Shown: piece by piece, positions 5,729 to 36,046 of the stretch
Position numbering within the stretch: position 1 is the first letter of the stretch
How the letters are laid out: every line of letters begins with the position of its first letter
Source of the DNA: a virus
Length of the DNA stretch: 64,000 bases
Virus record (IMG/VR): IMGVR_UViG_3300045988_164982
Direction: 5' to 3' (one strand)
The notes under the pieces: generated by a model
What the model saw: only the letters and a program-made list of their open reading frames with translations
Told to the model about the DNA's origin: nothing
Databases searched by the model: none
Translations under genes and position numbers: made by a program

Positions 5729-6013
5729 TTGAAATGGAAAAAACTTGTGCTTGCAGTTGCAGGTCTTGCGACAACATCGTTTATGATTCCACAATATCCC
5801 AACATAGAAACTGTATCAGCTGTATATACCGTAAAAAGCGGCGATACGCTTAGAGGTATATCGGAAAAGTTTTTGCCTCTAAACACTGGGGACAGGCGGT
5901 ATATCCTCGAATTTGAGGAAAGCATTGTAGAACTCAACCCAGAGCTTCAAAAAGACCGTGGCAGTATTTACCCTGGGCAGAAAATCCGCATTAATTATTG
6001 GGTAAAGGAGTGA
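5729..6013 (+). CDS. Secreted LysM-domain protein
   Basis: TTG start follows GGAGAGG. There is a signal-like LVLAVAGLATTSF segment and the LysM-like sequence YTVKSGDTLRGISEKF...IYPGQKIRI. Confidence 0.5.
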   Translation: MKWKKLVLAVAGLATTSFMIPQYPNIETVSAVYTVKSGDTLRGISEKFLPLNTGDRRYILEFEESIVELNPELQKDRGSIYPGQKIRINYWVKE

Positions 6014-6017
6014 GAGT

Positions 6018-7982
6018 ATGACAGATAGGGGGGCTTACAAAATGAAATTTCAAAAATTAATATTGGAAAATTTTCGAGGGATGAAAAAGCTGGAGGTGGA
6101 TTTTGCTGGTGCCTCTTGTAATGTATATGGTAGAAACGCCAGTGGAAAGACAACGATAGCCAATGCTATCTGCTGGTTGCTTACTGGCTCAGCCATGACA
6201 GGAGAAAAGGATTTTTCTCCTAAGACGGCAGGCAGTCACAATCTCCACCACAAGGCAGAGCTGACAATCCAGAAGGATGACGGCAGCATAGTAGTCCTGT
6301 CTAAAGACTATTATGAAAAGTGGACCAAAAAAAAAGGAGCTAGTACAGCTGAACTGACAGGACACACTACAGACTTCGCTATTGATGGAGTACCACAGAA
6401 AGAGAAAGACTATATAAAAGCTGTAGAGACTCTCTGTGGTGGCAGTACGGACAAGATAAAGGAAATATCTATACTAGGGTATTTCAGCGAATCCATAAAG
6501 GCTGACGACCGCAGGAGGGTATTGCTGGAGGTTTGCGGTGATGTGTCTGATGAGGAAATCATGAAAGACGACAGACTACAGGGATTGGAAAAATTCCTGC
6601 GAGTGCCTGGCACCGAGAATCAGCAGTATTCCATTGATGATTATCGGGCCATCGCTCTTAAACAGCGTTCCAAGCTAAAAAAGGAGCTTGATACACTGCC
6701 TGAGCGTATTGATGAACAGAATAACAGCTTGCCTGAGGCTGTAGATGAAAAGGCTTTACAGACGGAGTTAGAAGAGTTACAGAGGCTTAGAAACGAGCTG
6801 AGCAATACAGATAAAGTTGTCGCCAAGGAAGCGGCCATCAGAGGTCTGAGGGCTGGCATAGAAAAAGAAAAGGTTCAATTCACACAGGAACAGGTCGAGG
6901 CCAATTTAGAAGCTCAGAAAAAAATAGATAGGCTGATGGCCAAGAAAAGCGAATACAGCGAACGAAAAAGTAATCTAAGTTTTGAGGTTATACAGAAACA
7001 GCAGAATGTCAGCCAGATGGCTGATAGGCGTCAGAGCCTGCTGAATGAGTGGCAGGAAGTGGCCTCTTTGAAATGGCGGGATGGAGATAATATATGTCCC
7101 TGCTGTGGTCAGGAACTTCCAGCTGATCAGCTGGAGACGAAAAAGGCAGCGTTTATGGACAATATAAAGAACCGCAAAGAGGAAATCCGCAAGCAGGGGC
7201 AGACCTGTAGCGATGCCTTGATTCAGCAGTTAAAGGCTGAATTAGAGCTACAGCAGGGTGAGGTTGACAGACTGGACAAGGAAATAGCTATTCTTGAAAA
7301 AGAAAAAGCCCTGATATATGGACAGATGAAAGAACCCGCACCTTTTGAGCATACCAAAAGATACAAAGAGGCTATGGAGAGAATCCGCCAGCTGGAGAGC
7401 GAGAGCACAGACAATATAGCTGTTGCCAGGGAACAGCTTGCAGATGTAGATAAACGCATCCGAGAGGTAAATGAGGGGCTGGCTACAAAGGCTATGACTG
7501 AAAAAATCAAAGCTCGTATTACGGAGCTGGAGAAAATCCAGCAGGCCAAGGCTTCCCAGTTGGAGCAGGTAGAGCATGGCCTTTATCTCTGTGATGAGTT
7601 CATACGCATTAAGGTGGCTATGGTGACAGAGAAAATAAACAGCAGATTCAAAACTATCAGCTTCCAGCTCTTCAAGGAGCAGGTAAATGGCGGTATCAAG
7701 GAATGCTGTGAGGCACTGATACCATCACCAGATGGCACAATGGTTGAGTACAAGGCCGCCAATACAGCTGCCAAGGTAAATGCAGGACTGGAAATTATAG
7801 GAGTCCTCTCAGAGCACTATGGCATGAATATGCCAATTATCATGGACCAGGCCGAAAGTGTAATCAAGCTTGTTAATATCAATCAGCAGTTAATCAGGCT
7901 GATTGTGGCAGACCAGCCATTAGAAATAGAGGTTGTAGATACCTTAGCAGGTATAACAGATACAAAGAGAAGGAGTGCATAA
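6018..7982 (+). CDS. Rad50/SbcC-like SMC-family ATPase with a CxxC zinc hook
   Basis: The N-terminus is ENFRG...GRNASGKTT, a Walker A motif. The middle is a long coiled coil containing CPCCGQELP. The C-terminus has IIMDQAES, which resembles Walker B. Confidence 0.7.
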   Translation: MTDRGAYKMKFQKLILENFRGMKKLEVDFAGASCNVYGRNASGKTTIANAICWLLTGSAMTGEKDFSPKTAGSHNLHHKAELTIQKDDGSIVVLSKDYYEKWTKKKGASTAELTGHTTDFAIDGVPQKEKDYIKAVETLCGGSTDKIKEISILGYFSESIKADDRRRVLLEVCGDVSDEEIMKDDRLQGLEKFLRVPGTENQQYSIDDYRAIALKQRSKLKKELDTLPERIDEQNNSLPEAVDEKALQTELEELQRLRNELSNTDKVVAKEAAIRGLRAGIEKEKVQFTQEQVEANLEAQKKIDRLMAKKSEYSERKSNLSFEVIQKQQNVSQMADRRQSLLNEWQEVASLKWRDGDNICPCCGQELPADQLETKKAAFMDNIKNRKEEIRKQGQTCSDALIQQLKAELELQQGEVDRLDKEIAILEKEKALIYGQMKEPAPFEHTKRYKEAMERIRQLESESTDNIAVAREQLADVDKRIREVNEGLATKAMTEKIKARITELEKIQQAKASQLEQVEHGLYLCDEFIRIKVAMVTEKINSRFKTISFQLFKEQVNGGIKECCEALIPSPDGTMVEYKAANTAAKVNAGLEIIGVLSEHYGMNMPIIMDQAESVIKLVNINQQLIRLIVADQPLEIEVVDTLAGITDTKRRSA

Positions 7983-19779: not shown

Positions 19780-21230
19780 CGCTTTCGCTGTCAACTACCT
19801 ACCACCTATAGAGGTGGAGGCTTGTAAGTCAAAAATCACTTAGGTACTAACGATATTATCTCCCTAATTTTGCCTACATCATCGGATGGTTGACAACACC
19901 CGTCTAGCCTAAAAGTATACTTCTAAGCTGTTAGTTTTGGTTTTTTCTCACCTGAAACATATCTCACACCTAATTGCTGAATATTCATAGCACCAACTCT
20001 ATCATCATTACTGCAATACCCACATTTACATCTAAAAATGTGAGATTTGTGGTTACGACTCTTTTTATCAATACATCCACACTTAGGACATCTCTGAGAC
20101 GTATATTGTGCAGGTACTTTTAATACAGCACTATGATTTAAATTAGCCTTATAGGTTAAGAATTGCTCTAACTGGTAAAAAGCCCATGAACGCTTCTCAC
20201 AACGACTTTCAGTAGAGCCTTTTAAATTATCCTCATCAAAGGTAATCCCTGTTAAATCTTCAAGTACAAAAAGTGTATTTTTACCATACTTCTTTATGAG
20301 TGTCTTAGATAGACAGTGATTAACATCTGTCATCCAACGGTTCTCTCGTCCTGAAATACGTTTTAATACTCTTTTAGCCGATTTTGTACCTTTAGACTGT
20401 AACTCTGCTCTTACTTTAGCAAATCTATTACGTTTAGTCCTAGCCTTATTTCCTGAAAAGAATGTAGTCTTTCCTTGCTCATCATAACACACTGCATGAA
20501 ATCTAATGCCTCTGTCAATACCAACTACATGAGCAATCTGTTCTGTATTTACAGCCTCAATTAACTTAGTAGCTGAAATGTGTAAGTACCAACTACCATC
20601 ATGTTCTACTAACTTAGCACTGCCAAGTTTCCAATCAGAAGAGAAATATTTATCAAAATTATCACTACATATAGGTGTAGCAAATATTCTGCCCTCTAAA
20701 GTATTAATAGATAAATTCCCGTTGGCTAACTTAGACCAATCACGATTACGAACAAGGTCGACTTGCGGATGTGCAAAATTTATAGGCTTCTCGAGCCATT
20801 CAAGATTCCTAGAAACATGATACCTCTTCTTAGTATTCTTATCTTGGAATCTATACGGATTTTGTTTCAACTGTGTTTTTACAGTCTTATATCTTGCAAT
20901 TGTAGAACGAATTGCAGATTGTGCCATCATGGATTTTAATCCAAATTTTACACGAATCTCACTATATATCCCTTTTTGTAATTTTAGCTGACTTAACTGA
21001 AACCCGTGTGTAAAGATATATTCGGAAATATAATTACAGGCTTGTCTATATTGCTCCATAGTATTAGTAACTTTAGAAACATCTTCAATACGATGTAAGT
21101 CTAACTTTACTTTTATTGTAATACCTTGTGTTATACTAGACAATCATATCACCTCCTTTGTTTAATTTATTTAATATATCTAGCAATTCCTCCCCCACTT
21201 CTATAAGTGGGGGGAGGAATTGCTAAAGTG
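19780..21230 (-). mobile_element. IS200/IS605-family insertion sequence carrying tnpB only (IS1341-like)
   Basis: A TnpB gene is followed by a perfect 20-bp-stem hairpin at 21181-21225. The 3' flank of about 140 bp is where the omega-RNA and right end are expected. Confidence 0.6.
19923..21143 (-). CDS. tnpB: TnpB (OrfB) RuvC-like RNA-guided nuclease
   Basis: The protein is 406 aa with a C-terminal CPKCG...CKCGYC zinc finger and a RuvC-like D/E/D pattern. TTG start follows AGGAGG. Confidence 0.8.
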   Translation of the reverse strand: MSSITQGITIKVKLDLHRIEDVSKVTNTMEQYRQACNYISEYIFTHGFQLSQLKLQKGIYSEIRVKFGLKSMMAQSAIRSTIARYKTVKTQLKQNPYRFQDKNTKKRYHVSRNLEWLEKPINFAHPQVDLVRNRDWSKLANGNLSINTLEGRIFATPICSDNFDKYFSSDWKLGSAKLVEHDGSWYLHISATKLIEAVNTEQIAHVVGIDRGIRFHAVCYDEQGKTTFFSGNKARTKRNRFAKVRAELQSKGTKSAKRVLKRISGRENRWMTDVNHCLSKTLIKKYGKNTLFVLEDLTGITFDEDNLKGSTESRCEKRSWAFYQLEQFLTYKANLNHSAVLKVPAQYTSQRCPKCGCIDKKSRNHKSHIFRCKCGYCSNDDRVGAMNIQQLGVRYVSGEKKPKLTA

Positions 21231-21380
21231 TTTTGAAGCGTATTCGCTCAATATCTTGAATATCATGTTATTCAACGAACGATTATCAGCTTTGCCAAGC
21301 TCTATAAGTGCTGTTTTCAGCTGGGGAGTAATACAAATATTACAGCGAACTTTTTCTTCACCAGATAAGAAATTTGCCAT
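21201..21380 (-). CDS. Small ribbon-helix-helix protein of the Arc/Mnt/CopG type
   Basis: The 59-aa product is MANFLSGEEKVRCNICITPQLKTALIELGKADNRSLNNMIFKILSEY. It is divergent from the antirepressor operon. Its 3' end runs into the IS hairpin. Confidence 0.4.
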   Translation of the reverse strand: MANFLSGEEKVRCNICITPQLKTALIELGKADNRSLNNMIFKILSEYASKHFSNSSPHL

Positions 21381-24880: not shown

Positions 24881-25216
24881 ATGGCCATTAAGATTGTGCC
24901 GTCGTACCTGACTATTCCAGAGGGCGTGACCATTGACCAGCTGGAGAAGTTCATTGACACTATGAATCAGGGGCTTAGAGATGTCCAAGCAGCGTACACC
25001 GCCATCAAGGATAACACCGAGCCAGAGGAGAACGAGGAGCTGATTGCAGGGCTGGGAGAAAAGCTGGCAGGAAGTATGGCAATGTCCTATACTACACTGA
25101 TAGCTTTATCCAAGGTAGCAGAACTGAAAAACTATCCTAACAGCTTTGTAGATGATGCTATCAAGTTTACTAATTTGGGTAATAGGCTGTGCCGGTATCA
25201 TTCTGATATTTGCTAG
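24881..25216 (+). CDS. hypothetical protein
   Basis: ATG at 24881 follows AGAGGTGA. Confidence 0.35.
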   Translation: MAIKIVPSYLTIPEGVTIDQLEKFIDTMNQGLRDVQAAYTAIKDNTEPEENEELIAGLGEKLAGSMAMSYTTLIALSKVAELKNYPNSFVDDAIKFTNLGNRLCRYHSDIC

Positions 25217-25234
25217 TAATTTCAGGTAAAAGAA

Positions 25235-25265
25235 AAGCCCCACCATTATGGCAGGGCTTTTTGAT
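25235..25265. terminator. Bidirectional terminator between convergent gene blocks
   Basis: The stem AAGCCC...GGGCTT is flanked by A-rich sequence on one side and T-rich on the other. Confidence 0.5.
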
Positions 25266-25305
25266 TTCTTATATCAGCTGGGGCAAGAACCCAAAATTGG
25301 TGGCG

Positions 25306-25737
25306 TCAAGCTGGTACCGCAGTAAAAGCTCCGTAACCATGTAGGAAGCGGTCTTCTTTGTCCTTGAATATTACCAGGTCATTGTCAATGCCAGCCGAGT
25401 AAATATTGTCGCTACAATCATCTACTAGCTTTTCCATAGCAGAATAACAAGCCTCGTTCTCATCGCTACTATCAATCAGGAATGGCAACGGCTTCACCAA
25501 CTCGTCCAGATTATAGGTTGATAAATTATTAAACATAATGGGTGTAATGTGTGCACAATAGACTCTAAAATACATAAATAAGCACCTCCAAGAACAAAAC
25601 AGTGTGAAAATATGCAATAATGCTAGCAGGAATGTTGTTAAAGCAACACACCTGCCAACAATTATAGCATTAGCAATTACGGTCGCTCCGCGGTGTTGTA
25701 ATTGCTTTGATTTCACCAACACTGGCAGCGGTATCAT
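25306..25737 (-). CDS. hypothetical protein
   Basis: It is the last gene of the reverse-strand island. It overlaps the upstream gene by 68 nt. Confidence 0.35.
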   Translation of the reverse strand: MIPLPVLVKSKQLQHRGATVIANAIIVGRCVALTTFLLALLHIFTLFCSWRCLFMYFRVYCAHITPIMFNNLSTYNLDELVKPLPFLIDSSDENEACYSAMEKLVDDCSDNIYSAGIDNDLVIFKDKEDRFLHGYGAFTAVPA

Positions 25738-26197
25738 CTAAAGCCTCAGCTAAAATGTGCATAGGTAGATTTAAATCTTTGTAGCCCCGATATAAAATGT
25801 CTAAATAATGCGGGCTGGGCAAACCAAGATGGCGGTCTTCGTGCATGATATAGGCCATACCGTCAGTCGGTGTATTTTGCCATTTTTCAGGGTATAAAGG
25901 CTTGAAATTTTCGATGGGCAAAGTTTTCTTGTAATAGAATGTAGGGTGTCCCTCATAGATGTCCAGACGGTTCTCATCAGCCTTAGAAATTGCCCAAACC
26001 AACACTGGCACCTTGCACAAAACATTCTTTTCAATGGTGGCATAATTGCCAGACTTGCTACCCTTGAACATGAGCTGATAGCCTGAAATATCAGCGATTC
26101 CAATGGGCATGGCATCAGGGCAACGATGGCTCATTTGTTGTAAATCCAAATTAGAACCATAGGCAAGATAAATGGAAAAATTCTTTGTTTTAGACAT
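25670..26197 (-). CDS. Gamma-glutamyl cyclotransferase-like protein of the GGCT/AIG2 family
   Basis: The N-terminal sequence SIYLAYGSNL is the GGCT-fold signature (human GGCT has FAYGSNL). The protein is 175 aa. Confidence 0.7.
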   Translation of the reverse strand: MSKTKNFSIYLAYGSNLDLQQMSHRCPDAMPIGIADISGYQLMFKGSKSGNYATIEKNVLCKVPVLVWAISKADENRLDIYEGHPTFYYKKTLPIENFKPLYPEKWQNTPTDGMAYIMHEDRHLGLPSPHYLDILYRGYKDLNLPMHILAEALDDTAASVGEIKAITTPRSDRNC

Positions 26198-26233
26198 GAT
26201 TTTAGCCTCCTAAAAATTGCATTATGTGAAAAG

Positions 26234-26440
26234 TTAATCGTTATCGGATAGTAATACATCTATAAGCCCTAAAAACCACACAATCCCATCAAGAAATGTG
26301 TTCAGGATATTCATAAGAAGTACGGGCAGATAGAACAATATGATGAAGAATGTAATGGGAAATAGAACAAGTCCCATAATACCGCCAAAAGAGGCATCTA
26401 TAATCTTGAACGTTTCCTTAGAGTCGCTATCAAATCCCAA
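26234..26440 (-). CDS. Small membrane protein
   Basis: It has two hydrophobic segments. Confidence 0.35.
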   Translation of the reverse strand: MGFDSDSKETFKIIDASFGGIMGLVLFPITFFIILFYLPVLLMNILNTFLDGIVWFLGLIDVLLSDND

Positions 26441-26860
26441 TTACATCACCTCCAAGCGTGCCTGATTCTTTAACATGAGGCCAGTCAGAAGCCTGTTCAG
26501 CTCGCAAACATCATCAACATCAATAGAGGTCGTGTTTTCGCCATCTCTACCAGCAAGGAAGATGTCACCAAACAAAAGCCCAGCATAGTCAAGCTCTCCA
26601 GTAGCCAATTTTAAAGGGTTCAAGCAGATATTTGGCTGTGGATTAGGTATAAGCAAAGCCTCATCATCAACAAAAATGTCATATTTTGCCAGTGGTGTTT
26701 TCAGAAGAATATCAGGCAGATAGCGGGTAGCTGGTACAAGGTTAAACAAACGACCGCCTACAAGATTTTGCATAGCCTTAATGTCGTGCTCTATTCGGAT
26801 GACTTCAGGCGTAAAACTATCAGCCTTTAAATGTAATACAGTAAGTTTTCCTTTTTTCAT
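26441..26860 (-). CDS. hypothetical protein
   Basis: RBS AAGGAGTGTACCATT precedes the ATG. It sits inside the accessory island. Confidence 0.4.
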   Translation of the reverse strand: MKKGKLTVLHLKADSFTPEVIRIEHDIKAMQNLVGGRLFNLVPATRYLPDILLKTPLAKYDIFVDDEALLIPNPQPNICLNPLKLATGELDYAGLLFGDIFLAGRDGENTTSIDVDDVCELNRLLTGLMLKNQARLEVM

Positions 26861-26955
26861 AATGGTACACTCCTTTTACAGTAAAGAATATTGATGTATG
26901 GTACATCTCATAGGGCATTAATACTGTGTACTAGTGCCCTATAGGACAAACCAGA

Positions 26956-27921
26956 CTAACATACAGCAGATTCAGCCACTAAGGCTGAGGGGGAGGAGGT
27001 ACGCCAAGCCACATTGCCAGACAGATTTTCTAATAGGAATTTACGACATGTTTCAAATTCTTTCCCCTTTAGCTTCAGTTGGTTAATAAAACAGTGCATG
27101 AGATATGCCTGATTGTCGGTTTGTGCTGGAGTAGGGTCGGCACGCTTTTTTGACTTTGCTAATTCCATGATAGCAAGTGCAAACTGAATTGCGGTCTTGA
27201 CTTTACCCGCATGGAGGGTGGAATTGAAAAGCCTAAACTCCACTGTGCCGTGCATTCCAAGCGAATGAAAATTCAATGCACGATAACGGCTGTCATGATA
27301 ATGCACGCTCTGCTGATGGCGTACCTCATCAGGCAAGCACGAATAAAAACTGGCCAAAAATTCATCTAGGGTAAAGTCACCAGTCAGTGCATTTATTGCC
27401 CTAGAATATCTCCCGCTCATTGGCTGACAATATGTGATGTTGCGGTGCTCATCATCAACCTGAAAGGCATTGAAAAACATTGCTTCATTCTTGTGCCAGA
27501 TGTTGGCTAAGACTCGCAGGTGCTTTGGCGTAAAGTCATCAGCACCTATGTGTACATGTAAGCCACAAGACCGGTTTACTTTAGCTCCGTATCTTTTCAG
27601 ATTACGAACGACCTCCTGTAGAATCTCGATGTCTTGACTGCCAGACAGTATCGGCGTGATTAATTCGCATTGAGATGTGGCAACATCATCACCCTCATGT
27701 GTTGGAGAACATGTCCTTATGCTAGAGTCACGGGCAATATACCAATTACGGCCTTTGCTGTCCTGATACACATATTTGTCATAGACACCACCACAAAAGT
27801 CCGTTTTAGCGAAAATGTTTTTGGAAATTGTAGTTGCAACAATGGCAATAGCCGCTGGCCTTGATACTCCGCAAAATTCCAGCTCTACACCAAAAGTGCG
27901 TGCCTCCATGTTTTCATTCAT
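26956..27921 (-). CDS. Amidoligase of the GCS2/glutamine-synthetase-like carboxylate-amine ligase family (Pfam Amidoligase_2-like)
   Basis: It has FGVELEF near the N-terminus and CGLHVHIGA, as in YbdK/GCS2. The true start is MNENMEARTF at 27921 with AAGGAG upstream. The ORF-track extension to 28041 translates a repeat element. Confidence 0.65.
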   Translation of the reverse strand: MNENMEARTFGVELEFCGVSRPAAIAIVATTISKNIFAKTDFCGGVYDKYVYQDSKGRNWYIARDSSIRTCSPTHEGDDVATSQCELITPILSGSQDIEILQEVVRNLKRYGAKVNRSCGLHVHIGADDFTPKHLRVLANIWHKNEAMFFNAFQVDDEHRNITYCQPMSGRYSRAINALTGDFTLDEFLASFYSCLPDEVRHQQSVHYHDSRYRALNFHSLGMHGTVEFRLFNSTLHAGKVKTAIQFALAIMELAKSKKRADPTPAQTDNQAYLMHCFINQLKLKGKEFETCRKFLLENLSGNVAWRTSSPSALVAESAVC

Positions 27922-28040
27922 AGTACATACACTCCTTAGAAATACATTGATAATATTCAGTCCTAAAGACTTTACACTGCCCACCAGGCGAAAGCTGGCA
28001 AGCAGGTTAAAACCTTTAGAGTATGGATATATTAAGCTCA
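27922..28040 (-). repeat. Cassette-junction repeat class B, copy 1
   Basis: It is about 85% identical to 29341-29445. It ends in AAGGAGTGTAT(G/T)TACT-ATG. Confidence 0.6.
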
Positions 28041-28043
28041 TCA

Positions 28044-28266
28044 GCAGCCAAGCGGATGGCCTTGTCGAAAAATTCCTGAGAAATTGACTTTTCTACAGTG
28101 CTGGCCATTTTGCCGTTGAAAAGTTCCCAGCAATCAGGGCCAATCTTGAATATGTTTTTTTATCAGTAGCGTCCAGCTGTTGCCCTAACCAAAAAATGTT
28201 GCCGTCAATGAGAAGTTTTGCAAGAATACCACCAAACTCGTCGTTATATTCACAATCCAGAACTGT
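28044..28266 (-). pseudogene. Small gene apparently frameshifted at an A7 run
   Basis: A 58-aa ORF, MTVLDCEYNDEFGGILAKLL..., has a strong RBS, AAAAAGGAGG. With one extra A the frame would run to 84 aa and end exactly at the junction repeat. Confidence 0.3.
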
Positions 28267-28284
28267 CATAATAAAACCTCCTTT

Positions 28285-28791
28285 TTATCGCGGTAATCTA
28301 GAAGTGACACGTAAAATTTTATCTTTATATATTTTTGAAATTTCGATATGAATATCATTGACTAGGGTGTTGAGGTCTGATATTTTTTCATTCAGCAGGG
28401 CAATGGTGTCCTCGACGTGTTCAGCTTGTGCTGTTAGGTCTGATATTACCTTTTTGATATATTCGGCTCGTTTGTCTATCAATACATTGAGCTTTTCGGC
28501 ATTGATACGCTTGCCGTCCAGAAAATCATCTAATTTACATATAACTAGATTGCGTGCATAATCATCACAAGCTCCGTCCTCGCGTTCTATTTTAATGCTT
28601 TTTTTATCATAGCTAGCGTGATAAACATAACAGCCAACTGACTCTAAGGCATTGTCAAAACGCTTGTTATAACACTTGCCATCAAACTGCTGGGCAATAG
28701 CTTTTACGCCATCGACCAGGGCAAAGGTCTTTTCATACTGAGAGATACGTGCCTGTAATAAAATTTCTTCTTTTGTCATGACTTTAGCCAT
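28285..28791 (-). CDS. hypothetical coiled-coil protein
   Basis: RBS TAGGAGGTTTTTATT precedes the ATG. Confidence 0.4.
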   Translation of the reverse strand: MAKVMTKEEILLQARISQYEKTFALVDGVKAIAQQFDGKCYNKRFDNALESVGCYVYHASYDKKSIKIEREDGACDDYARNLVICKLDDFLDGKRINAEKLNVLIDKRAEYIKKVISDLTAQAEHVEDTIALLNEKISDLNTLVNDIHIEISKIYKDKILRVTSRLPR

Positions 28792-28866
28792 AATAAAAAC
28801 CTCCTAAAAAGCTAACCACAAAAAATGCACTTGTGGTCATAAAGAATATATGGTATGATAATAGAG

Positions 28867-29340
28867 TCAAATTATACCTTTCCAAATGAGCTTATATTCA
28901 GGTAAGGAACGGATAGAAGTTGACGACTTTAGCTCCGTATCTATGCCGATGATGATGTGGTCTAGTACGGGAATATTCAGGATTTTTCCTGCCTCTACCA
29001 ATCGTCTAGTGGTATTAATATCATCCTCTGATGGAGTAGACACGCCACTGGGGTGGTTATGAGCTACGATGATGCTGGCCGCATTGTGCAGGATAGCAGG
29101 TGCAAACACCGACCTCGGCTCAACAACGGAGGCTGAGGAGCTACCCACGGAAATATCCTGAATAGCGATAACACCGCCCTTGATGTTCAAGCACATAACA
29201 GTGCAATGCTCGTATGGTTCATCTTTAAACCAGCTGGCCAGAATGGCGGTGGCATCATCAGCACCTGTGATGGTTTTAGTTTCGTAAAGATGACTGCCCT
29301 CACGGACAAGCTGAAGCTTGTAACTTGCAATTCTTTTCAT
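28867..29340 (-). CDS. RadC-like JAB/MPN-domain protein
   Basis: VAHNHPSGVSTPSEDD is the RadC JAB signature (HxHPSG...SxxD). Confidence 0.8.
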   Translation of the reverse strand: MKRIASYKLQLVREGSHLYETKTITGADDATAILASWFKDEPYEHCTVMCLNIKGGVIAIQDISVGSSSASVVEPRSVFAPAILHNAASIIVAHNHPSGVSTPSEDDINTTRRLVEAGKILNIPVLDHIIIGIDTELKSSTSIRSLPEYKLIWKGII

Positions 29341-29445
29341 AGTAAATACACTCCTTGTATGTAAAAGATTGATATTCAGCCTAAAGGCTTTACACTGCCC
29401 ACCAGATACAAATCTAATAGGCAGGTTAAAACTTTTAGGGTGGTA
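29341..29445 (-). repeat. Cassette-junction repeat class B, copy 2
   Basis: It is homologous to 27922-28040. The AGCC/GGCT hairpin here corresponds to an AGTC/GACT hairpin in copy 1, which is a compensatory change. Confidence 0.6.
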
Positions 29446-29979
29446 TCAGTACAACTCAATGTAACCACCAGCAGCAGGGATATAATGCCCCTCAATTTCA
29501 AGGTCGCGACCATAGGCCTCATAATCAAAGTACCGAAGTAAAAGGTCTATATCTTTGGAACGGTCACAACCGGGGCAGTTAAAATCTGCAATTACTTGAC
29601 GGGCTACATCTCCCATGTCGTCGCAATTGTCATAAAAGGTGTAGTTGTCGTCTTCTAGGATGGTCAAACCCTCCTCAATATTGCAGGAATACTCATAAAG
29701 AATAGCCTCAATAATCTCGTCGTCCTCGTCAATGTCTTCCAGCCGTTCTGCGACATCATTCACATGGTCATAAGAGGCGTACTCGCCAAAATTAACTGGG
29801 CTTTCCCAATCAGGGAAAAAGTACTCCTCGTGTTCGTCATCGCATCCAATGTCAGACAAAATCTCATTGAACTCATCAGAGGAAATAGGGAAGTCAATCC
29901 AACGGCCTTTATCAATGCCCTCGTTCCATAATCCCAGACAAGCGATATAACCACGGATAGCAATAGTATTGTTTTTCAT
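29446..29979 (-). CDS. ardA: ArdA-family antirestriction protein, a DNA mimic
   Basis: The N-terminus is IAIRGYIACLGLWNEGIDKGRWIDF. The protein is highly acidic, rich in D/E/Y. The start at 29979 has AAGGAGTGTATTATT upstream. Confidence 0.7.
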   Translation of the reverse strand: MKNNTIAIRGYIACLGLWNEGIDKGRWIDFPISSDEFNEILSDIGCDDEHEEYFFPDWESPVNFGEYASYDHVNDVAERLEDIDEDDEIIEAILYEYSCNIEEGLTILEDDNYTFYDNCDDMGDVARQVIADFNCPGCDRSKDIDLLLRYFDYEAYGRDLEIEGHYIPAAGGYIELY

Positions 29980-30016
29980 AATAATACACTCCTTTTTGAG
30001 ATACATAATCAGCATA

Positions 30017-30223
30017 TCAGCAGTTTTTCCACTTATTAGAAAACCACTCCCTATAAGCTACAATGTCGTCACCTTTATAGATGTACAAGGGTGTAAGCCG
30101 ACCAGCACACAAGCGACTTGCAAAGCGTTTGGCACTAGTCAAGGTCTTGCAATCAATATAGGAAGTGTTGGACGAGTAATTGTCTAATTCTTCTATGATA
30201 CGGAATACCATAATAAAAACCAC
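30017..30223 (-). CDS. hypothetical small protein
   Basis: CTGGAAAGGTGGTTTTTATT, the class A junction motif, precedes the ATG. Confidence 0.4.
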   Translation of the reverse strand: MVFIMVFRIIEELDNYSSNTSYIDCKTLTSAKRFASRLCAGRLTPLYIYKGDDIVAYREWFSNKWKNC

Positions 30224-30262
30224 CTTTCCAGAATCAGCCTAAAACGGCTGATTTTTTGCGTT

Positions 30263-30619
30263 TTAGTTTTTTGCGATGAAAAGCAACATGGAAATATTGA
30301 CTGTTTTGTATTGGGAGTAAAACCAGTCGTTAGGCTTGATATGGACGGTATAATTGTCATCTACATAGCTGAAAAGATGGTTAGATAAGTATTCAGCAAG
30401 GTCACAAACAGCCTGTGTCCTGTTGCAATTCATAGTAGTAACAAGCTCGTCAAGCTGTTCAGCATTAGCCTGTTTTAAGACTTTCGCAACCGCCAGCTCA
30501 TACATTGTCTCGGTATCAAATTCCATAATATCCACTCCTAAAAGACAAAGGCAGGTCAAAACACCGCCTTGAGACAAAAATTTTCTAAAACTGTCCACCA
30601 GTGGTGGAAAATAGGCCAA
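30263..30619 (-). CDS. hypothetical protein
   Basis: Open reading frame inside the island. Confidence 0.4.
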   Translation of the reverse strand: MAYFPPLVDSFRKFLSQGGVLTCLCLLGVDIMEFDTETMYELAVAKVLKQANAEQLDELVTTMNCNRTQAVCDLAEYLSNHLFSYVDDNYTVHIKPNDWFYSQYKTVNISMLLFIAKN

Positions 30620-30904
30620 TTTTCAGATGTTGCCTTGCCAGGAACGACTGACAAAGCAATCAGCAGGGAAAATCACCCTAAAAATGCTATCTAGCTATAA
30701 CAAAAAGTGCATAGCTGGGCAGCTAAAACCGGTAAAAGATGAATACCGAACACTCAATATTCATAAAGGATAACAAAAATCCCGCCTTTAGACTTTTCGC
30801 CTTGAAAAATATATAACAAAATTGTTATATTAATCCGTTAGGCGGGTAAAGAAGTCCACCCACAACCAAATTACCAGCAGGTAAAAGGCTAGATAGTATA
30901 ATTT

Positions 30905-31058
30905 TTTCATTCTAAAACCACCTTTCAAATGTTTATGTGCAAAGTTTACAAAATTTCATAGCTAACCATTCCAGATTTTGTGAAAGGTTAACAATCATGG
31001 TAAAAACCACTTATGATACCTATTACATTTTTGTAGGTAATAGGCATTTAAGAAGTTT
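30905..31058 (-). repeat. Cassette-junction repeat class A (other copies at 31326-31434 and 30224-30262)
   Basis: The unit is GCATTTAAGARGTTTT, then a hairpin, then TATCATAAGYGGTTTT, then GGAAAGGYGGTTTTWGAA-ATG. The hairpin stems differ in sequence between copies but stay complementary. Confidence 0.55.
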
Positions 31059-31325
31059 TTAATCATGGGGCATGGTAGGCAGATGACTGATGACTGGGGT
31101 AAAATACCCCTTGTTATAGTAGGCATCTACTTCTGCCATGCTATTGAACTCTATAGTCCAATCTTTTACAACTTGGCAAGAAAATCCGACATCACTCAGT
31201 AAACACCTATAGTCAACTACATACTTGTTTTTAATATGATACAAGTTTGCATGTATGCTGAGGGTCTTGCCGTTTTTCGTTTTTACAACGTTATGAGTAG
31301 CTATACAATCCTCTAGTTTACGCAT
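31059..31325 (-). CDS. hypothetical protein
   Basis: ORF flanked by class A junction repeats. Confidence 0.4.
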   Translation of the reverse strand: MRKLEDCIATHNVVKTKNGKTLSIHANLYHIKNKYVVDYRCLLSDVGFSCQVVKDWTIEFNSMAEVDAYYNKGYFTPVISHLPTMPHD

Positions 31326-31434
31326 TTCAAAAACCGCCTTTCCAGGATTTACAAATTTTCATTCACGGAATAAAACCGCTTATGATACCCACCGCCCAGC
31401 AAGGCGGTGAGCATTTAAGAGGTTTTATTTATCA
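31326..31434 (-). repeat. Cassette-junction repeat class A, copy 2
   Basis: It is homologous to 30905-31058 and has the CACCGCC...GGCGGTG hairpin. Confidence 0.55.
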
Positions 31435-31938
31435 TCAATTCCAATAGATTGCCCAAGCTCTTTCCCTTGCCAATTCCTCAAGCAGGTCGTGCTCTTTGTT
31501 GGCTACTAGGGCATTGATAATTTTTACATCTAACTCGGACGGTACGTTATTGATATAGCATATATACCAGCCCTTACCGCAACAAATATCATAAAGGTGA
31601 TTTAGGAGGGCGTGCTCACCATTGCCCCACATATCGTATATGGTTTGGTCAAAGTTATCGCCGTACATATCCATGAGGTCGTCAGCACACTCGATGTGAT
31701 CTCTCCATAAGATATAGTAATTAGAGTTACTGCTGATTATGCTTTTTTCAGCAGACAAGGTCAGCACACCAGCAAGCTGGTCGGCTGGATAGTAGTTAAT
31801 AGCGTTTGACCATGTATGACAAATATGTACATCACACTCCCGCTCGATTACCATCTCAACGGCAACTTGGCTGGCTTTTACGGCCTCAACCAGCTTTGCC
31901 TCAAAATCCCAGTATTCGCTATATGTATACTTCTCCAT
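31435..31938 (-). CDS. hypothetical protein (first gene of the reverse-strand island)
   Basis: RBS AAGGAGTGTTTCATT precedes the ATG. Confidence 0.4.
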   Translation of the reverse strand: MEKYTYSEYWDFEAKLVEAVKASQVAVEMVIERECDVHICHTWSNAINYYPADQLAGVLTLSAEKSIISSNSNYYILWRDHIECADDLMDMYGDNFDQTIYDMWGNGEHALLNHLYDICCGKGWYICYINNVPSELDVKIINALVANKEHDLLEELARERAWAIYWN

Positions 31939-31979
31939 AATGAAACACTCCTTTGTATTGCTTATTATTATTCTGACTA

Positions 31980-32430
31980 ATAGCCATTAGTCTGCCCTTT
32001 ACCTATGCGGGTAATGAGCAGGTAAAGGCTACAAGGTCGGCAGGGAATACACCGCTCCGCCATGACATTATGGCAGTGTACTTTGCTGATAGTATGCCAC
32101 ATATCACACCGCCAGCTGTAGCAAGCTAGCTATGGCATACCGTTTCTGTCAGCGTGTCCGCTACATCATCATAGCGGGTGGGCGTACTACACCTGTAGCA
32201 CGACTTTGAGCTGTATGCGGTTTTCAAGGTACAACCGTTCCTTGCAGGTGGCTTACACCTGTGGGTAGACTACTCCCTGTCCTGCCTCCTATTTCAGGAC
32301 GACTTTAATACATCTATTTGTTCGCTTTTGTTTGGCGGTTGCGACTCCGCCTGTACGGTACACGCCCCGCACGGTTGGCGGTCTAGGGGGTAGGCTTTCA
32401 ACTTTGTTCCTGTTCCCCTTGACAATTATA
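31980..32430. other. GC-rich, hairpin-dense ORF-free segment; candidate structured ncRNA or single-strand DNA element
   Basis: It contains many 6-10 bp inverted repeats, for example GCCCTTTACCT...AGGTAAAGGC, CCGCTA...TAGCGG, GTCCTG...CAGGAC and CCGCC...GGCGG. There are TACACCTGT direct repeats. Its composition differs from the AT-rich flanks. Confidence 0.35.
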
Positions 32431-32666
32431 TTATAACTCTACACCTATATAATGTCAATACTTTTTATATATTTTTTGGCAGCCTGTGTGTATTTTTTAT
32501 GTGGCGTTTTGTATTTTACCAGAGGTCAAGCGGATGTTTGCTCGGTACTGCCCTGGGAGCTACGCTAGGGAATTGCATGGTCTAGCTCTAAAATTTTTCC
32601 CAAATTTGAAATCCATTTGTGCAAGGTTAATCAACTGCGTTTTGTATAAAAATCTACAAAAAATCA

Positions 32667-32695
32667 TTGATAACAACACTATAATATGGTATTAT
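32667..32695 (+). promoter_or_regulatory. Sigma-70-type promoter, TTGATA-N17-TATTAT
   Basis: The -35 and -10 hexamers lie about 40 nt upstream of the RHH gene start at 32737. Confidence 0.5.
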
Positions 32696-32736
32696 ACATA
32701 TAAAAGGTATGTACAGTATTTATAGGAGGACAAAAG

Positions 32737-33327
32737 ATGGCGGTAGTAAAGGAAACAAGCATACAAATTAGGATGAGCGAAGATGAAAAAGCCATATTAA
32801 AGGCATTAGCTGAACAAAAGGGGCTTACATTATCAGACTTTGTACGCAGCGTATGTAAGCAGACAGTTATTAATAGCATGAGTGGCAGTTGCAACCTACA
32901 GGATAGGGAAGAAAGCGGCCAAATCACAAATAAGAATGATGTGAACCTAGGTGAGAAAAATCTAACACTTTTAGGAGGGGACGATTGGGTAGCATATTCT
33001 TTTAATACCACGAAGAATACGAGTGAGATTCTGAACGCTGTTGCTAAAGCTAACAACACAACAGCCAATAAAATGATAAGAACACTGCTATTAGCATGGC
33101 TAAGGGGAAAGACGAACAATGAGAATAGTGGAGTAGGAAGTATTTCTATATCCCCTAGAAAAAGAGGAGAAAAAAACTCGGTCACTATCGGTCTTACCTT
33201 GACTAAGAATGACAGAGAAGCAATTTTAGGCTATTTAGCACAGTCAGGAGATAAACTTACTGGACTGCTAGATACCCTGATAGACACCTATGTGAAACCA
33301 CAGCACAATGAACTGAAAGGGGAGTAG
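32737..33327 (+). CDS. Tandem ribbon-helix-helix DNA-binding protein
   Basis: There are two RHH-like units, IQIRMSEDEKAILKALAEQKGLTLSDFVRSV and SVTIGLTLTKNDREAILGYLAQSGDKLTGLLDTLI. Confidence 0.5.
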   Translation: MAVVKETSIQIRMSEDEKAILKALAEQKGLTLSDFVRSVCKQTVINSMSGSCNLQDREESGQITNKNDVNLGEKNLTLLGGDDWVAYSFNTTKNTSEILNAVAKANNTTANKMIRTLLLAWLRGKTNNENSGVGSISISPRKRGEKNSVTIGLTLTKNDREAILGYLAQSGDKLTGLLDTLIDTYVKPQHNELKGE

Positions 33328-33332
33328 CAACC

Positions 33333-34922
33333 ATGATTAAGAAAGCAATCACCCTAGCAGTGGTATTAGTTATGCTGATGGCAAGCCAATGTTATGCAAA
33401 GAAAACAGCTCTAACGAATTTTGAATTAGATGAACTAGCACGACACATAGAAATAAACCTAAGCAGCATGGGTATGAGAGCACATTTCATTCAGGACAAT
33501 CCGAACGAAATGACTTTAACCCTAGAAGCTAGTAAGTATAAGTTCGTCACAGTCAAAAATAGTAATGGTACATTGCAAAACCTTATCTGGTATGATATTG
33601 GTGGCTCTGCTGCTGGTAAAGATATTCTCTCTATGCTAAATGAGAGTATTTTCGCAACTATCGGTTTCCCAAAAGAAGATAGGATAGAAAGCAACCCTGT
33701 TAATAATCGCCGTATAGGAGTAACGACATGGAATATACGCTCAAAACGATTGAAGCAGGAACTGCTTTACCAGGTAAAATATGACAGCAAAAATAATCGA
33801 ACGCTGTTTTCGCTTGGGAATGAACCTATAGATTCTGCATTGAACAGCATACAGCTAGCGGAAAATACTAACAACTTGATAGGTTTTGGAATTGACGAAT
33901 ATATCAAACATTTACAAATAAATCTTAATGGTAGAGGTATTACAAGTGAAATTAGTAAAAATAGTCAAAATGATATTGATGTTACCGTAAAAAATCAAAA
34001 AAGTGGATTTTCTACTTATAGAATGATTGCCAAAACAAAAAACAATGGCTCAATAGGAGGTGTCGTTTGGTATTTAAAAACTGGCAATCCCACAGTTTAT
34101 GAAGATATGGATTTTATCAGAAGCATATGCGATACTTTAGAAATAGAGTCTAATAGCGTCCACACATTTGCTTTTGGCTCTCATTTACAGCGTATAGGCG
34201 ATGGAGTATTTGTAGGTAGTTTCTTAGATAAACAAAAGGGGTATTCAATAAGATATGGAAATCGTTATAATGGTGACATTATCATTAGAGGAATAGTCTG
34301 CGAACCTATAAATTTAAATGATTTATGGTATGATATTGATGGCTTGGAAGAATCTACAGAAAGCTACGATGAAAAAATATTTAAGCAGGAAATTGAAGAA
34401 CTATCAGTGCTAAGTCGGCATGGAGCACAAGCAATCTATGAACAATTGCCTACTATATATCACGACACTCCAGATTATAAACTGACAGAGCTGCATACAA
34501 GGGACAACAAGACCTACATTTGTACTGCATACTATAAAGATTCATCGTGCGATATTTACTTCACGCAGAATGATAAAGGAAAGCTTGATACCGCAGCTAT
34601 AATGTTTGATAGTGATGACAAGCGGGATGCTGCCATAGCAAGCTATGGTAAAATCACTATGGCTATCGGAATGTCAACAGCGGATGCATTAAATTTACAT
34701 GCTAATGCAATACATAATGCTGAACAACGACTTTATGTACAAAAACTAGCTGGAAATACTATAATGCATGGGTTAAGCGATATGTATGATAGTAGTAGAA
34801 AGCATTTCTCTTTAATGTTTGCATATGATGAAATAGCTAAGAAGTTTAGTCTTTTGCTTGGGGTTATTGCCCCATCACCTAGTGAAATAGCGGATTATCG
34901 CAATGAATTAGGTATGAATTAA
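33333..34922 (+). CDS. Secreted 529-aa protein with internal repeats (moron)
   Basis: The signal peptide is MIKKAITLAVVLVMLMASQCYA. There are two related ~150-aa modules, IEINLSSMGMRAHFIQDNPNEMTLTL and HLQINLNGRGITSEISKNSQNDIDVTV. Confidence 0.5.
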   Translation: MIKKAITLAVVLVMLMASQCYAKKTALTNFELDELARHIEINLSSMGMRAHFIQDNPNEMTLTLEASKYKFVTVKNSNGTLQNLIWYDIGGSAAGKDILSMLNESIFATIGFPKEDRIESNPVNNRRIGVTTWNIRSKRLKQELLYQVKYDSKNNRTLFSLGNEPIDSALNSIQLAENTNNLIGFGIDEYIKHLQINLNGRGITSEISKNSQNDIDVTVKNQKSGFSTYRMIAKTKNNGSIGGVVWYLKTGNPTVYEDMDFIRSICDTLEIESNSVHTFAFGSHLQRIGDGVFVGSFLDKQKGYSIRYGNRYNGDIIIRGIVCEPINLNDLWYDIDGLEESTESYDEKIFKQEIEELSVLSRHGAQAIYEQLPTIYHDTPDYKLTELHTRDNKTYICTAYYKDSSCDIYFTQNDKGKLDTAAIMFDSDDKRDAAIASYGKITMAIGMSTADALNLHANAIHNAEQRLYVQKLAGNTIMHGLSDMYDSSRKHFSLMFAYDEIAKKFSLLLGVIAPSPSEIADYRNELGMN

Positions 34923-35027: not shown

Positions 35028-35687
35028 ATGAGAGATGCTTATGATTTTGCCAAGTATTTTATAAAGAACGGCTATGATTCCAATCCAAACACATACGATG
35101 GAAACATGAAACTTCAAAAAATGTTGACATTCGCAAATGCTATAAGCCTTGCAGAATACGGCAGCCCCCTGTTCAATGATAAAATATTAGCTTTTACTAA
35201 TGGCTGTGTTGTAGAAAAGGTCAGACTGAGATATAGGAATGATTATAAGGGTTTAAAACGAGATAGCGATGTATTTCAGCCAGATTTTACAGAGCAGGAA
35301 TACGATGTACTGAATTTGACTGTAGGAATATTCGGCAAGGAAAGTGCCGTGACATTATCCAATGTCAATCACGAGTTCAGTTTTTGGAATGAACCATATC
35401 ATAGAGGCATGGTCAATGATAGCTATCATGACAAAGAAAAATCAGTTGTTAATATGGAGGATTATCCCAAAGATATATCCGTGATAAAAGGTATGATTGA
35501 TATATACAGACAAAATCATAAAGATAGTAATAAGAGTGAGCTAATAAACGGCATTACTTTTTACTATGATGGTTTTGAGCTGACCGACAGCATTGTCCAT
35601 GAGCTTGCAGAGTTTGCACTGTCTGGGGAGGCAGAGGATAGTTCTTATACGGTCTGCCTTGATGATGGAGAGCTGGTGATTTACTGA
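35028..35687 (+). CDS. Panacea-domain (GepA/DUF4065/SocA-like) antitoxin-type protein
   Basis: The N-terminus is AYDFAKYFIKNGYD...NMKLQKMLTFANAISLAEYGSPLFND, which is the GepA/Panacea signature. Confidence 0.65.
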   Translation: MRDAYDFAKYFIKNGYDSNPNTYDGNMKLQKMLTFANAISLAEYGSPLFNDKILAFTNGCVVEKVRLRYRNDYKGLKRDSDVFQPDFTEQEYDVLNLTVGIFGKESAVTLSNVNHEFSFWNEPYHRGMVNDSYHDKEKSVVNMEDYPKDISVIKGMIDIYRQNHKDSNKSELINGITFYYDGFELTDSIVHELAEFALSGEAEDSSYTVCLDDGELVIY

Positions 35688-36046
35688 TGGAATTGAAAGC
35701 AGGTCACATCGTCAAAGGCAAACTTCCTTTTCGAGATGGCAAAATACCATTGTATAGCAGACCTTATCTGATTGTGAAAATAGATTGCGATACAGTGGAT
35801 TTGCTAAATATATCATCTACAGACGGCAAGGAATGGAAACTGGCCATGAAATCAAATATGGCTATAGTAAATTACGATCCACCACTAAACAAGCCATCGT
35901 TTGTTAAACTTGATTCGCGCATAACAGTTCCATTGGAAAAGGTATGTAGTCTAAAGTTATGGGGTTCGCAGCCGTTATGTGAAAGTGAATTAGTGAAAAT
36001 AATCAATGCCCTAGAGGTATTTGAAGTAGATGAAACAGAAAAATAA
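35687..36046 (+). CDS. MazF/PemK-like putative toxin
   Basis: It has an ATGA overlap with the Panacea gene. The protein is 119 aa. GHIVKGKLPFRDGKIPLYSRPYLIV parallels the MazF/Kid pattern GD/EIW...P..G.E....RP.LV. The C-terminal D.RIT....KV..... pattern also matches. Confidence 0.4.
   Translation: MELKAGHIVKGKLPFRDGKIPLYSRPYLIVKIDCDTVDLLNISSTDGKEWKLAMKSNMAIVNYDPPLNKPSFVKLDSRITVPLEKVCSLKLWGSQPLCESELVKIINALEVFEVDETEK

Follow-up and report, generated by a model that had tools for sequence, protein, structure and literature searches.

Covarying hairpin junctions and gene content variation in a probable anti-defence operon of a gut prophage lineage

This report concerns the junctions between the genes of an operon in a viral DNA record, IMG/VR record IMGVR_UViG_3300045988_164982, which was analysed over 64,000 nucleotides (nts; the window). 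An earlier note, made from the letters of this DNA, had picked out conserved elements between the genes at positions 27922-31434. Most of these junctions carry a long hairpin, here termed a rod, whose two arms change together between copies, and the gene content of related prophages differs at these same junctions.

The prophage and its minus-strand operon

By gene annotation the window is a temperate siphovirus prophage. Its left part encodes an integrase (2815-3864, minus strand), an SbcC-like protein, RecT, replication and DnaC-like proteins, an HNH endonuclease, TnpB and several Rha/Ant-type regulators, and its right part, from 40.9 kb onward, encodes the terminase, portal, major head and major tail proteins and a tape measure of 2170 amino acids (aa). 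The large terminase is nearest to those of Clostridium perfringens siphophages, at 50% aa identity, and the host is probably a gut Clostridia-like bacterium.

The junctions sit in a 7.2-kb series of minus-strand genes (the island), which is oriented against the main phage genes. The series is flanked by a single strong promoter and a single terminator, from which one polycistronic minus-strand transcript is predicted. As ArdA is an antirestriction protein, and the other annotated families are presumably also typical of the conflict islands of phages and conjugative elements, the series is probably an accessory anti-defence operon. It is a prophage operon and not an island of an integrative and conjugative element (ICE), as the earlier note had allowed. 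A reading as the leading region of a plasmid or ICE, with single-stranded-DNA promoters or sso-like elements, was dropped because the operon is surrounded by phage genes, including those for the integrase, RecT, replication, terminase, portal, capsid and tape measure, and a megablast search of plasmids gave no match to the island. Nor did the island match deposited phage genomes in a search in distant mode, and no paper was found on the combination of ArdA, RadC, amidoligase and DUF3846.

The features of the operon are given below in gene order, with rod coordinates, base pairs (bp) and folding z-scores for the junctions. ORF stands for open reading frame. A 68-aa protein is encoded between the DUF3846 and GGACT/AIG2-like genes, and an 89-aa protein comes last.

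32430-32458, minus: operon promoter TTGACA-17-TATAAT, the sole 12/12 promoter match within 25-33 kb
31939-32429, minus: structured leader of 490 nts, folding z -4.5, its last ~100 nts being class-B copy B0
31977-32034, minus: B0 rod, a class-B paralogue, free energy -23 kcal/mol
31435-31938, minus: g1, a 167-aa ORFan without Pfam, PHROG or NCBIfam match
31326-31434, minus: junction A1, class A, rod 31369-31429, 26 bp, -34.6 kcal/mol, junction z -4.7
31059-31325, minus: g2, an 88-aa ORFan, present or absent among relatives
30911-31061, minus: junction A2, class A, rod 31001-31061, 23 bp, junction z -4.5
30830-30910, minus: 27-aa hydrophobic ORF, C-terminus conserved in all relatives
30527-30829, minus: structured non-coding stretch of ~300 nts, 90-96% identical to relatives, the best-conserved segment of the island
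30263-30526, minus: g3, an 87-aa ORFan, its position held by three unrelated genes among relatives
30212-30262, minus: junction A3, 8-bp hairpin 30232-30253 followed directly by the Shine-Dalgarno (SD) sequence CTGGAAAGGTGG
30017-30211, minus: g4, a 64-aa ORFan without family match
29980-30016, minus: junction B3 remnant, rod deleted here and present in relatives
29446-29979, minus: ArdA antirestriction gene (Pfam PF07275, E 9e-31)
29341-29445, minus: junction B2, class B, rod 29380-29439, 25 bp, junction z -4.5
28867-29340, minus: RadC-like JAB gene (Pfam PF04002, E 1e-36)
28792-28866, minus: junction Rb, of neither class, 10-bp hairpin 28815-28837 and SD, z -0.9
28285-28791, minus: g7, a 168-aa ORFan, present, absent or replaced among relatives
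28016-28269, minus: g8, frameshifted version of an 84-aa gene, which relatives have intact
27922-28020, minus: junction B1, class B, rod 27961-28020, 25 bp, containing the upstream stop codon
26956-27921, minus: Amidoligase_2 gene (Pfam PF12224, E 4e-58)
26861-26956, minus: junction C (amidoligase to DUF3846), rod 26896-26956, 25 bp, own sequence, junction z -4.3
26441-26860, minus: DUF3846 gene (domain match)
25670-26197, minus: GGACT/AIG2-like gene (domain match)
25576-25670, minus: junction D (GGACT to next gene), rod 25612-25670, 24 bp, own sequence, junction z -4.6
25228-25261, minus: intrinsic terminator closing the operon, a 13-bp stem followed by a T-run

Junction families and rod structure

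The intervals named in the earlier note are exactly the spacers between consecutive minus-strand genes, and the stems quoted there (CACCGCC/GGCGGTG, CCTATTAC/GTAATAGG, AATCAGCC/GGCTGATT, and AGCC..GGCT versus AGTC..GACT) are present, as are both ribosome-binding-site blocks. Its division of the junctions into two classes holds for A1 with A2 and for B1 with B2, which are true families when local alignments are compared with 1000 shuffles, but does not extend to A3. None of the shuffles reached the score of A1 with A2 (z 7.4), B1 with B2 (z 29) or A1 with A3 (z 7.5), but what A1 and A3 share is the SD block only, and A3 is without the class-A flanks. Junction Rb, which had been described as a related ribosome-binding-site block, is similar to A3 (z 4.7) through the SD region only, with no similarity to A1 (z 1.4). 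No significant likeness was found between class A and class B; together with rods C and D they have a common shape and not a common sequence. The copies that had been listed all exist, but the list was incomplete, and the class-B copies B0 and B3 and the rods C and D, of the same layout, have been added to it. The compensatory changes in the stems, which had also been claimed, were borne out by covariation; only the tips of the hairpins had been seen, however, the true rods being 58-61 nts long. The proposed mini-hairpin AGCC/GGCT uses bases of the rod, whose outer stem it would compete with, and is paired in only 69% of alignment cells versus 97-99% for the rod.

All seven rods in the window fall within that length range, and six of them have 23-26 bp, B0 being somewhat shorter. 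Each begins on the upstream stop codon or at most 6 nts after it (B0, which follows no ORF, apart), and its end is separated from the next ATG by 35-43 AU-rich nts (A2 excepted), a spacer which closes with an extended SD, either AAGGAGTG or GAAAGGYGG. Thus the A1 rod is followed by a 43-nt spacer with the SD GGAAAGGCGG and the rods of B1 and B2 each by a 39-nt spacer with AAGGAGTG, while B0 ends 38 nts upstream of the g1 ATG and the SD of junction C is AAAGGAGTG. The A2 rod starts on the g2 stop codon and is followed by a decayed ORF remnant and then the SD; comparison with relatives L021 and L144 identifies the remnant as the decayed start of a lost gene, which is why A2 is longer than the other junctions. 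The rod ends read AAAACC...GGTTTTA in class A and CTAAAAG...CTTTAGG in class B, and the rods of class A, B1, B2, C and D are interrupted by 1x1, 1x2 or 2x2 internal loops. Folding z-scores of the junctions that hold most of the rods are about -4 to -4.7. The hairpins of A3 (8 bp) and Rb (10 bp) are short and lie outside this layout.

A stringent scan for rods on the minus strand of the whole window returned 21, seven of them in the island, which makes up 11% of the sequence; this is an enrichment of about four-fold. Within the window the covariance models of class A and class B match the island only, against a background in which the best scores were 26 and 22 bits in ~410 kb of unrelated metagenome loci. 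The class-B model (R2) gives 35.9 bits for B0 here and up to 54.7 bits in relatives, and it matches junction C weakly, at 21 bits.

The pairing of the rods was examined across their variants. In class A (10 distinct variants) 100% of the cells in the 22 predicted pairs hold standard pairs; both partners have changed in five pairs, and a single partner, via G·U, in five; none of 500 shuffles reached the covariation score, and slid partners pair in 39-53%. In class B (20 variants) 99.2% of the cells in 18 pairs are paired and eight pairs are changed on both sides, again with none of 500 shuffles reaching the score, and a model-based alignment of 36 sequences which includes B0 has 97.2% of cells paired. 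The lower stems are conserved and also covary. A class-B-like element is present upstream of the amidoligase gene of a more distant phage (L157, amidoligase 62% identical), in which the lower stem and flanks are kept and the upper stem is wholly replaced yet perfectly complementary (TAGCTACTATC/GATAGTAGCTA). The short A3 hairpin has a compensatory U-A to A-U change in L148.

The sense strand is the stabler in nine of ten hairpins, by 3-9 kcal/mol, and 28 G·U pairs are found on the sense strand versus 9 on the antisense strand. Together with the compensatory and wobble changes, the G·U bias and the better folding of the sense strand show that the rods form in sense RNA and are kept by selection in the transcript, rather than as symmetric DNA palindromes.

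Class B precedes four unrelated genes, namely g1, ArdA, RadC and the amidoligase. The copy in front of ArdA, B3, is found in L009, L018, L020, L021, L144, L145 and L147, where the spacer is ~100 nts versus 37 nts in the window; its rod has been deleted in the window between short CTGAT/TTGAT repeats. B0 has no ORF upstream of it, and B3 remains with ArdA where a 66-aa gene has been inserted upstream (L148), therefore class B behaves as a 5' untranslated region (UTR) module which travels with the downstream gene.

Some further observations were made on the junctions and on the stretches next to them. Relatives differ in the orientation of the A3 hairpin loop, one form being the reverse complement of the other (GTTGT versus ACAAC and GTTTT versus AAAAC; L021, L147 and L145), which is a DNA-level event typical of quasi-palindromes, and on the plus strand A3 resembles an intrinsic terminator. 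The leader is G+C-richer than its surroundings and has no match in Rfam; only its final 100 nts are explained, as B0. The 392-nt stretch that holds the 27-aa ORF and the ~300-nt non-coding stretch folds with z -4.3. The C-terminal motif of this ORF, LWLW(V/L)DFF(T/A)RLTD, is kept in all relatives, even where the start has been remodelled, and a plus-strand promoter-like site at 30802-30831 would yield an RNA antisense to it; judging from the sequence, the two may form a type I toxin-antitoxin-like pair. The frameshift in g8 is probably at an A7 run.

Gene content and breakpoints among relatives

Exact-protein and homologue look-ups yielded two IMG/VR contigs and, from metagenomes of the human gut, about twenty related prophage islands, and these served as relatives (L numbers). 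The earlier note had asked for homologues of the junctions in related elements and for gene content that varies between them, and both were found. Conserved genes occur in identical order throughout, and content differs at the junctions. Some relatives have g2 and others do not. Position 3, which lies between a conserved stretch of 300 nts on its upstream side and junction A3, likewise conserved, is occupied by three unrelated gene families. g7 is kept in some relatives, missing from others and elsewhere exchanged for a 63-aa gene unrelated to it. An additional 66-aa gene occurs in L148, and the operon end is variable, with a TnpB gene there in one case. In identity comparisons with the relatives, the junctions are conserved equally to, or more than, the flanking genes. 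Against L148, for example, junction A1 is 86% identical and g1 64%, and junction B2 is 90% identical and ArdA 71%.

The edges of these events could be placed in several relatives. L004 has lost g2 and has the A1 5' half joined, just past the rod, to the 3' part of A2, and in L020 the crossover joins two SD blocks. The edges of the g7 insertion or deletion are AGGAGG-TTTATTATG blocks, which are SD sequences. The L148 copy of B1 (5970-6070, upstream of the amidoligase) is a chimera of the B2 upper stem and the B1 3' part, which points to gene conversion between paralogous connectors. The g2, g7, position-3, 66-aa and B3 events each have a different breakpoint, which does not fit a site-specific recombinase; the pattern is what would be expected of homologous, microhomology or template-switch events at repeats.

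The distribution of the elements was then considered beyond these relatives. Rfam gave no match at gathering scores over the whole window, and nothing relevant at E <= 1 in 25000-32800. A scan for the class-B core in one genome per species (185,579 species) gave one chance match, in an ABC-transporter gene, and no true match, and a tighter class-B pattern found among viral contigs only the two known IMG/VR contigs of the same lineage. A loose pattern for the class-A flanks had at least 119 matches in metagenome contigs, which are chance matches, without a complementary centre among those listed. A search for related loci with the amidoligase as sole protein found nothing. In more distant ArdA islands (35-46% identity) the spacers are 10-35 nts and without rods; ArdA islands in general therefore do not have the connectors, and the elements appear confined to one prophage lineage. 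In distant amidoligase-GGACT operons of other prophages (L157 1-2600; L158 8120-10508) the spacers measure 57-102 nts and contain hairpins of 9-15 bp without a U-tract, therefore accessory operons of this kind may often have intercistronic hairpins, though of differing sequence.

The neighbourhood of the operon also carries variable genes. Divergent from the operon promoter, at 32737-34922 (plus strand), lie a ribbon-helix-helix gene (NikA-like or Arc/RelB-like N-terminus) and a 529-aa ORF without Pfam, PHROG or NCBIfam match, a pair that is swapped for other gene sets in relatives and is a candidate for the island regulator or for a separate toxin-antitoxin or defence module. Adjoining the island at 35028-36046 (plus strand) are a SocA/Panacea-domain antitoxin-like gene and its 119-aa partner, among Ant/KilAC anti-repressor genes and a ParB-methylase. 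The 25-40 kb stretch as a whole looks like an accessory hotspot. The TnpB gene of the window (IS605 OrfB / Cas12f-like) is at 19923-21143 (minus strand), with a very stable hairpin at 21169-21244, and the TnpB gene at the island end in one relative (L021 10091-11209) is a different copy.

Interpretation and known systems

The junctions are probably, though with considerable room for doubt, intercistronic hairpins for the processing, stability or insulation of mRNA, which also serve as passive patches of homology. Each standard connector consists of a ~60-nt rod starting from the upstream stop codon, a 35-43-nt AU-rich single-stranded spacer, and an extended SD with the start codon. The rods would be cut or bound by a double-strand-specific factor, most plausibly the host RNase III, because their length of about two helical turns, central internal loops and intercistronic position match the sites of phages T7 and SP82; both features looked for in an RNase III site, a double-stranded stem of at least ~20 bp with internal loops and a location between cistrons, are present. 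Alternatively the rods might be barriers to exonucleases. Either way each cistron would acquire a transcript end that is defined and stable, and its translation start would be shielded from the adjoining cistrons. Because the connectors are repeated along the operon and common to related phages, they and their SD blocks could also act passively as short homologies for ordinary homologous or microhomology recombination, by which genes would be added, deleted, replaced or converted, and to which the phage-encoded RecT could contribute. This would give cassette-like variation without a dedicated recombinase. The variation itself is the observed pattern and this mechanism is what we infer from it. 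The modular cassette system proposed in the earlier note is therefore retained as far as variation at conserved, covarying junctions is concerned, but not in its integron-like or terminator-based form.

Several points weigh against this explanation. The assignment to RNase III is a guess from shape and length. The sequences used for covariation are few and come from one lineage, so that the many cells reflect a handful of independent events (A1 versus A2; B0, B1, B2, B3 and L157). The B3 rod has been deleted in the window while ArdA is retained, therefore at least one rod is dispensable, and the short hairpins of A3 and Rb are a poor fit to the rod model. The conservation of the junctions could in part come from recent recombination or gene conversion and not from purifying selection.

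Four other explanations were weighed. That the hairpins are intrinsic terminators or attenuators which set transcription levels along the operon, each forming a unit of terminator, ribosome-binding site and gene, or a moron, would suit stable hairpins directly after stop codons, and there is a T-run behind the Rb hairpin and a terminator-like A3 on the opposite strand. The long rods (A1, A2, B0, B1, B2, C and D) are without a U-tract, however, and none was called by the terminator scan, the only minus-strand calls in the region being the operon end (25261-25228) and the Rb hairpin, which is not conserved among relatives. No minus-strand promoter-like site with at least 10/12 matches lies inside any junction, so that transcription could not be restarted there, and B0 sits in a leader with no gene upstream. 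The terminator role and the moron-like boundary suggested by the earlier note are accordingly not supported, and we regard this whole explanation as improbable. We think the same of selfish or neutral palindromic DNA (REP/MITE-like mini-elements, or template-switch quasi-palindromes) without RNA function. The wholesale swapping of upper stems for other near-perfect palindromes (A1 versus A2; L157 versus B1) and the DNA-level loop inversion at A3 are what it would lead one to expect, but it would not account for the strict layout from stop codon to ATG, the restriction of window copies to the operon, the absence of a true match in the 185,579 species genomes or in IMG/VR outside the lineage, the G·U bias towards the transcribed strand, or the conserved and covarying lower stems.

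The uniform size and conserved internal loops of the rods suggest a specific ligand, and with several family-less ORFans in an operon of anti-defence context the rods could be sites for an RNA-binding protein or ribonuclease encoded by the phage or island, or RNA decoys against host defence. No RNA-binding or nuclease domain was detected in the island proteins by domain library scans, though, and A, B, C and D are alike in shape and not in sequence, which argues against one sequence-specific ligand; this explanation is judged more doubtful still. A reading as CRISPR-repeat mimics (RNA anti-CRISPR) or Cas9 guide-like RNAs was set aside by eye, there being no repeat-like length, no cas context and no host repeat for comparison. 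Least credible, with only the slimmest of chances, is that the hairpins are attC-like single-stranded-DNA sites at which a site-specific recombinase moves cassettes. Speaking for it, the rods are imperfect palindromes whose outer parts are conserved and whose centres vary yet remain complementary, and they lie between promoterless co-oriented genes that are present or absent at the junctions. The breakpoint nevertheless differs in each event, being at a rod flank, an SD block or an ORF edge, and no GTTRRRY/RYYYAAC core is present. The sole tyrosine recombinase is the prophage integrase, 22 kb away, whose scores of 60.7 bits on TIGR02249 and 39 bits on PRK15417 fall below the respective cut-offs of 265 and 435, so no integron integrase was found. 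Integrons use the bottom strand, whereas here the sense strand folds best, and class B moves with the downstream gene and not with the upstream one. The likeness to attC drawn in the earlier note therefore does not carry over to the mechanism.

To return to processing or insulation hairpins, a more ambitious form of this explanation, which we consider unlikely, would make the connector a standardised 'plug-and-play' unit, processed for independent expression and at the same time offering portable homology for RecT-type capture and swapping of anti-defence genes, in effect a homology-driven integron without an integrase. If the rods are processing or insulation signals, they would show how a temperate phage evenly expresses a changing set of small anti-defence genes from one promoter, and how the repetition of regulatory connectors directs gene exchange to the borders of genes. 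If true, two structured-RNA motifs of gut Clostridia-type prophages that Rfam lacks would also be gained, and the rods might be used as natural cistron insulators for Gram-positive synthetic operons. The conceptual gain is incremental, because T7 and SP82 RNase III sites, T4 promoter-early stem-loops (PeSLs) and boundary sequences are precedents.

Among known systems, REP/BIME-type intercistronic stem-loops stabilise upstream mRNA in enterobacterial operons and occur in hundreds of dispersed copies per genome. The rods are like them in being hairpins after stop codons within operons, able to block 3' exonucleases and set differential expression, but they are restricted to one operon of one phage lineage, and class B is tied to the downstream gene. 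Mosaic lambdoid phages have conserved boundary or linker sequences at gene borders, and the likeness lies in short conserved sequences where recombination joins different genes; here the unit is ~100 nts and has covarying RNA structure. The architecture shared with integron attC sites, that of imperfect palindromes with conserved outer parts and a variable complementary centre between promoterless co-oriented genes, comes without IntI, attI, an R'/R'' core or a constant crossover point, and with the sense strand as the putative functional one.

The early genes of T7 are separated by RNase III sites, R0.3 to R1.3, in a transcript that begins with an anti-restriction gene. Bacillus phage SP82 is described as having RNase III processing sites between its early genes, and the B. 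subtilis RNase III as a double-stranded-RNA enzyme of narrow specificity (PMC4838370). What the rods have in common with these sites is the repetition, between the cistrons of a polycistronic phage transcript, of related hairpins that span about two helical turns and contain internal loops. They differ in being predicted from sequence, in having neither sequence similarity to those sites nor an Rfam match, and in their position in a prophage accessory island that lies on the other strand from the main phage genes.

The PeSLs of T4-type phages are small regulatory cassettes that mediate modular gene shuffling; they are intergenic motifs of stop codon, stem-loop and SD in ORFan-rich variable regions, defined by a strong promoter and a terminating stem-loop (PMC2839356, PMC4122927). 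As with PeSLs, a repeated motif spans the upstream stop codon, stem-loop, SD and start in a variable region of small ORFans, and it marks where insertions, deletions and replacements begin and end when close relatives are compared, events which would arise by homologous recombination with no dedicated recombinase. PeSLs carry a strong sigma-70 promoter and a terminator stem-loop, whereas the junctions described here have neither promoter nor U-tract. Their stems are also much longer (22-26 bp) and all belong to one operon, the phage is a temperate siphovirus with a Gram-positive-type host, and there is no sequence relationship to PeSLs. The connectors would accordingly appear to be a new sequence family of a known type of element, with a function suggested by its likeness to these systems.

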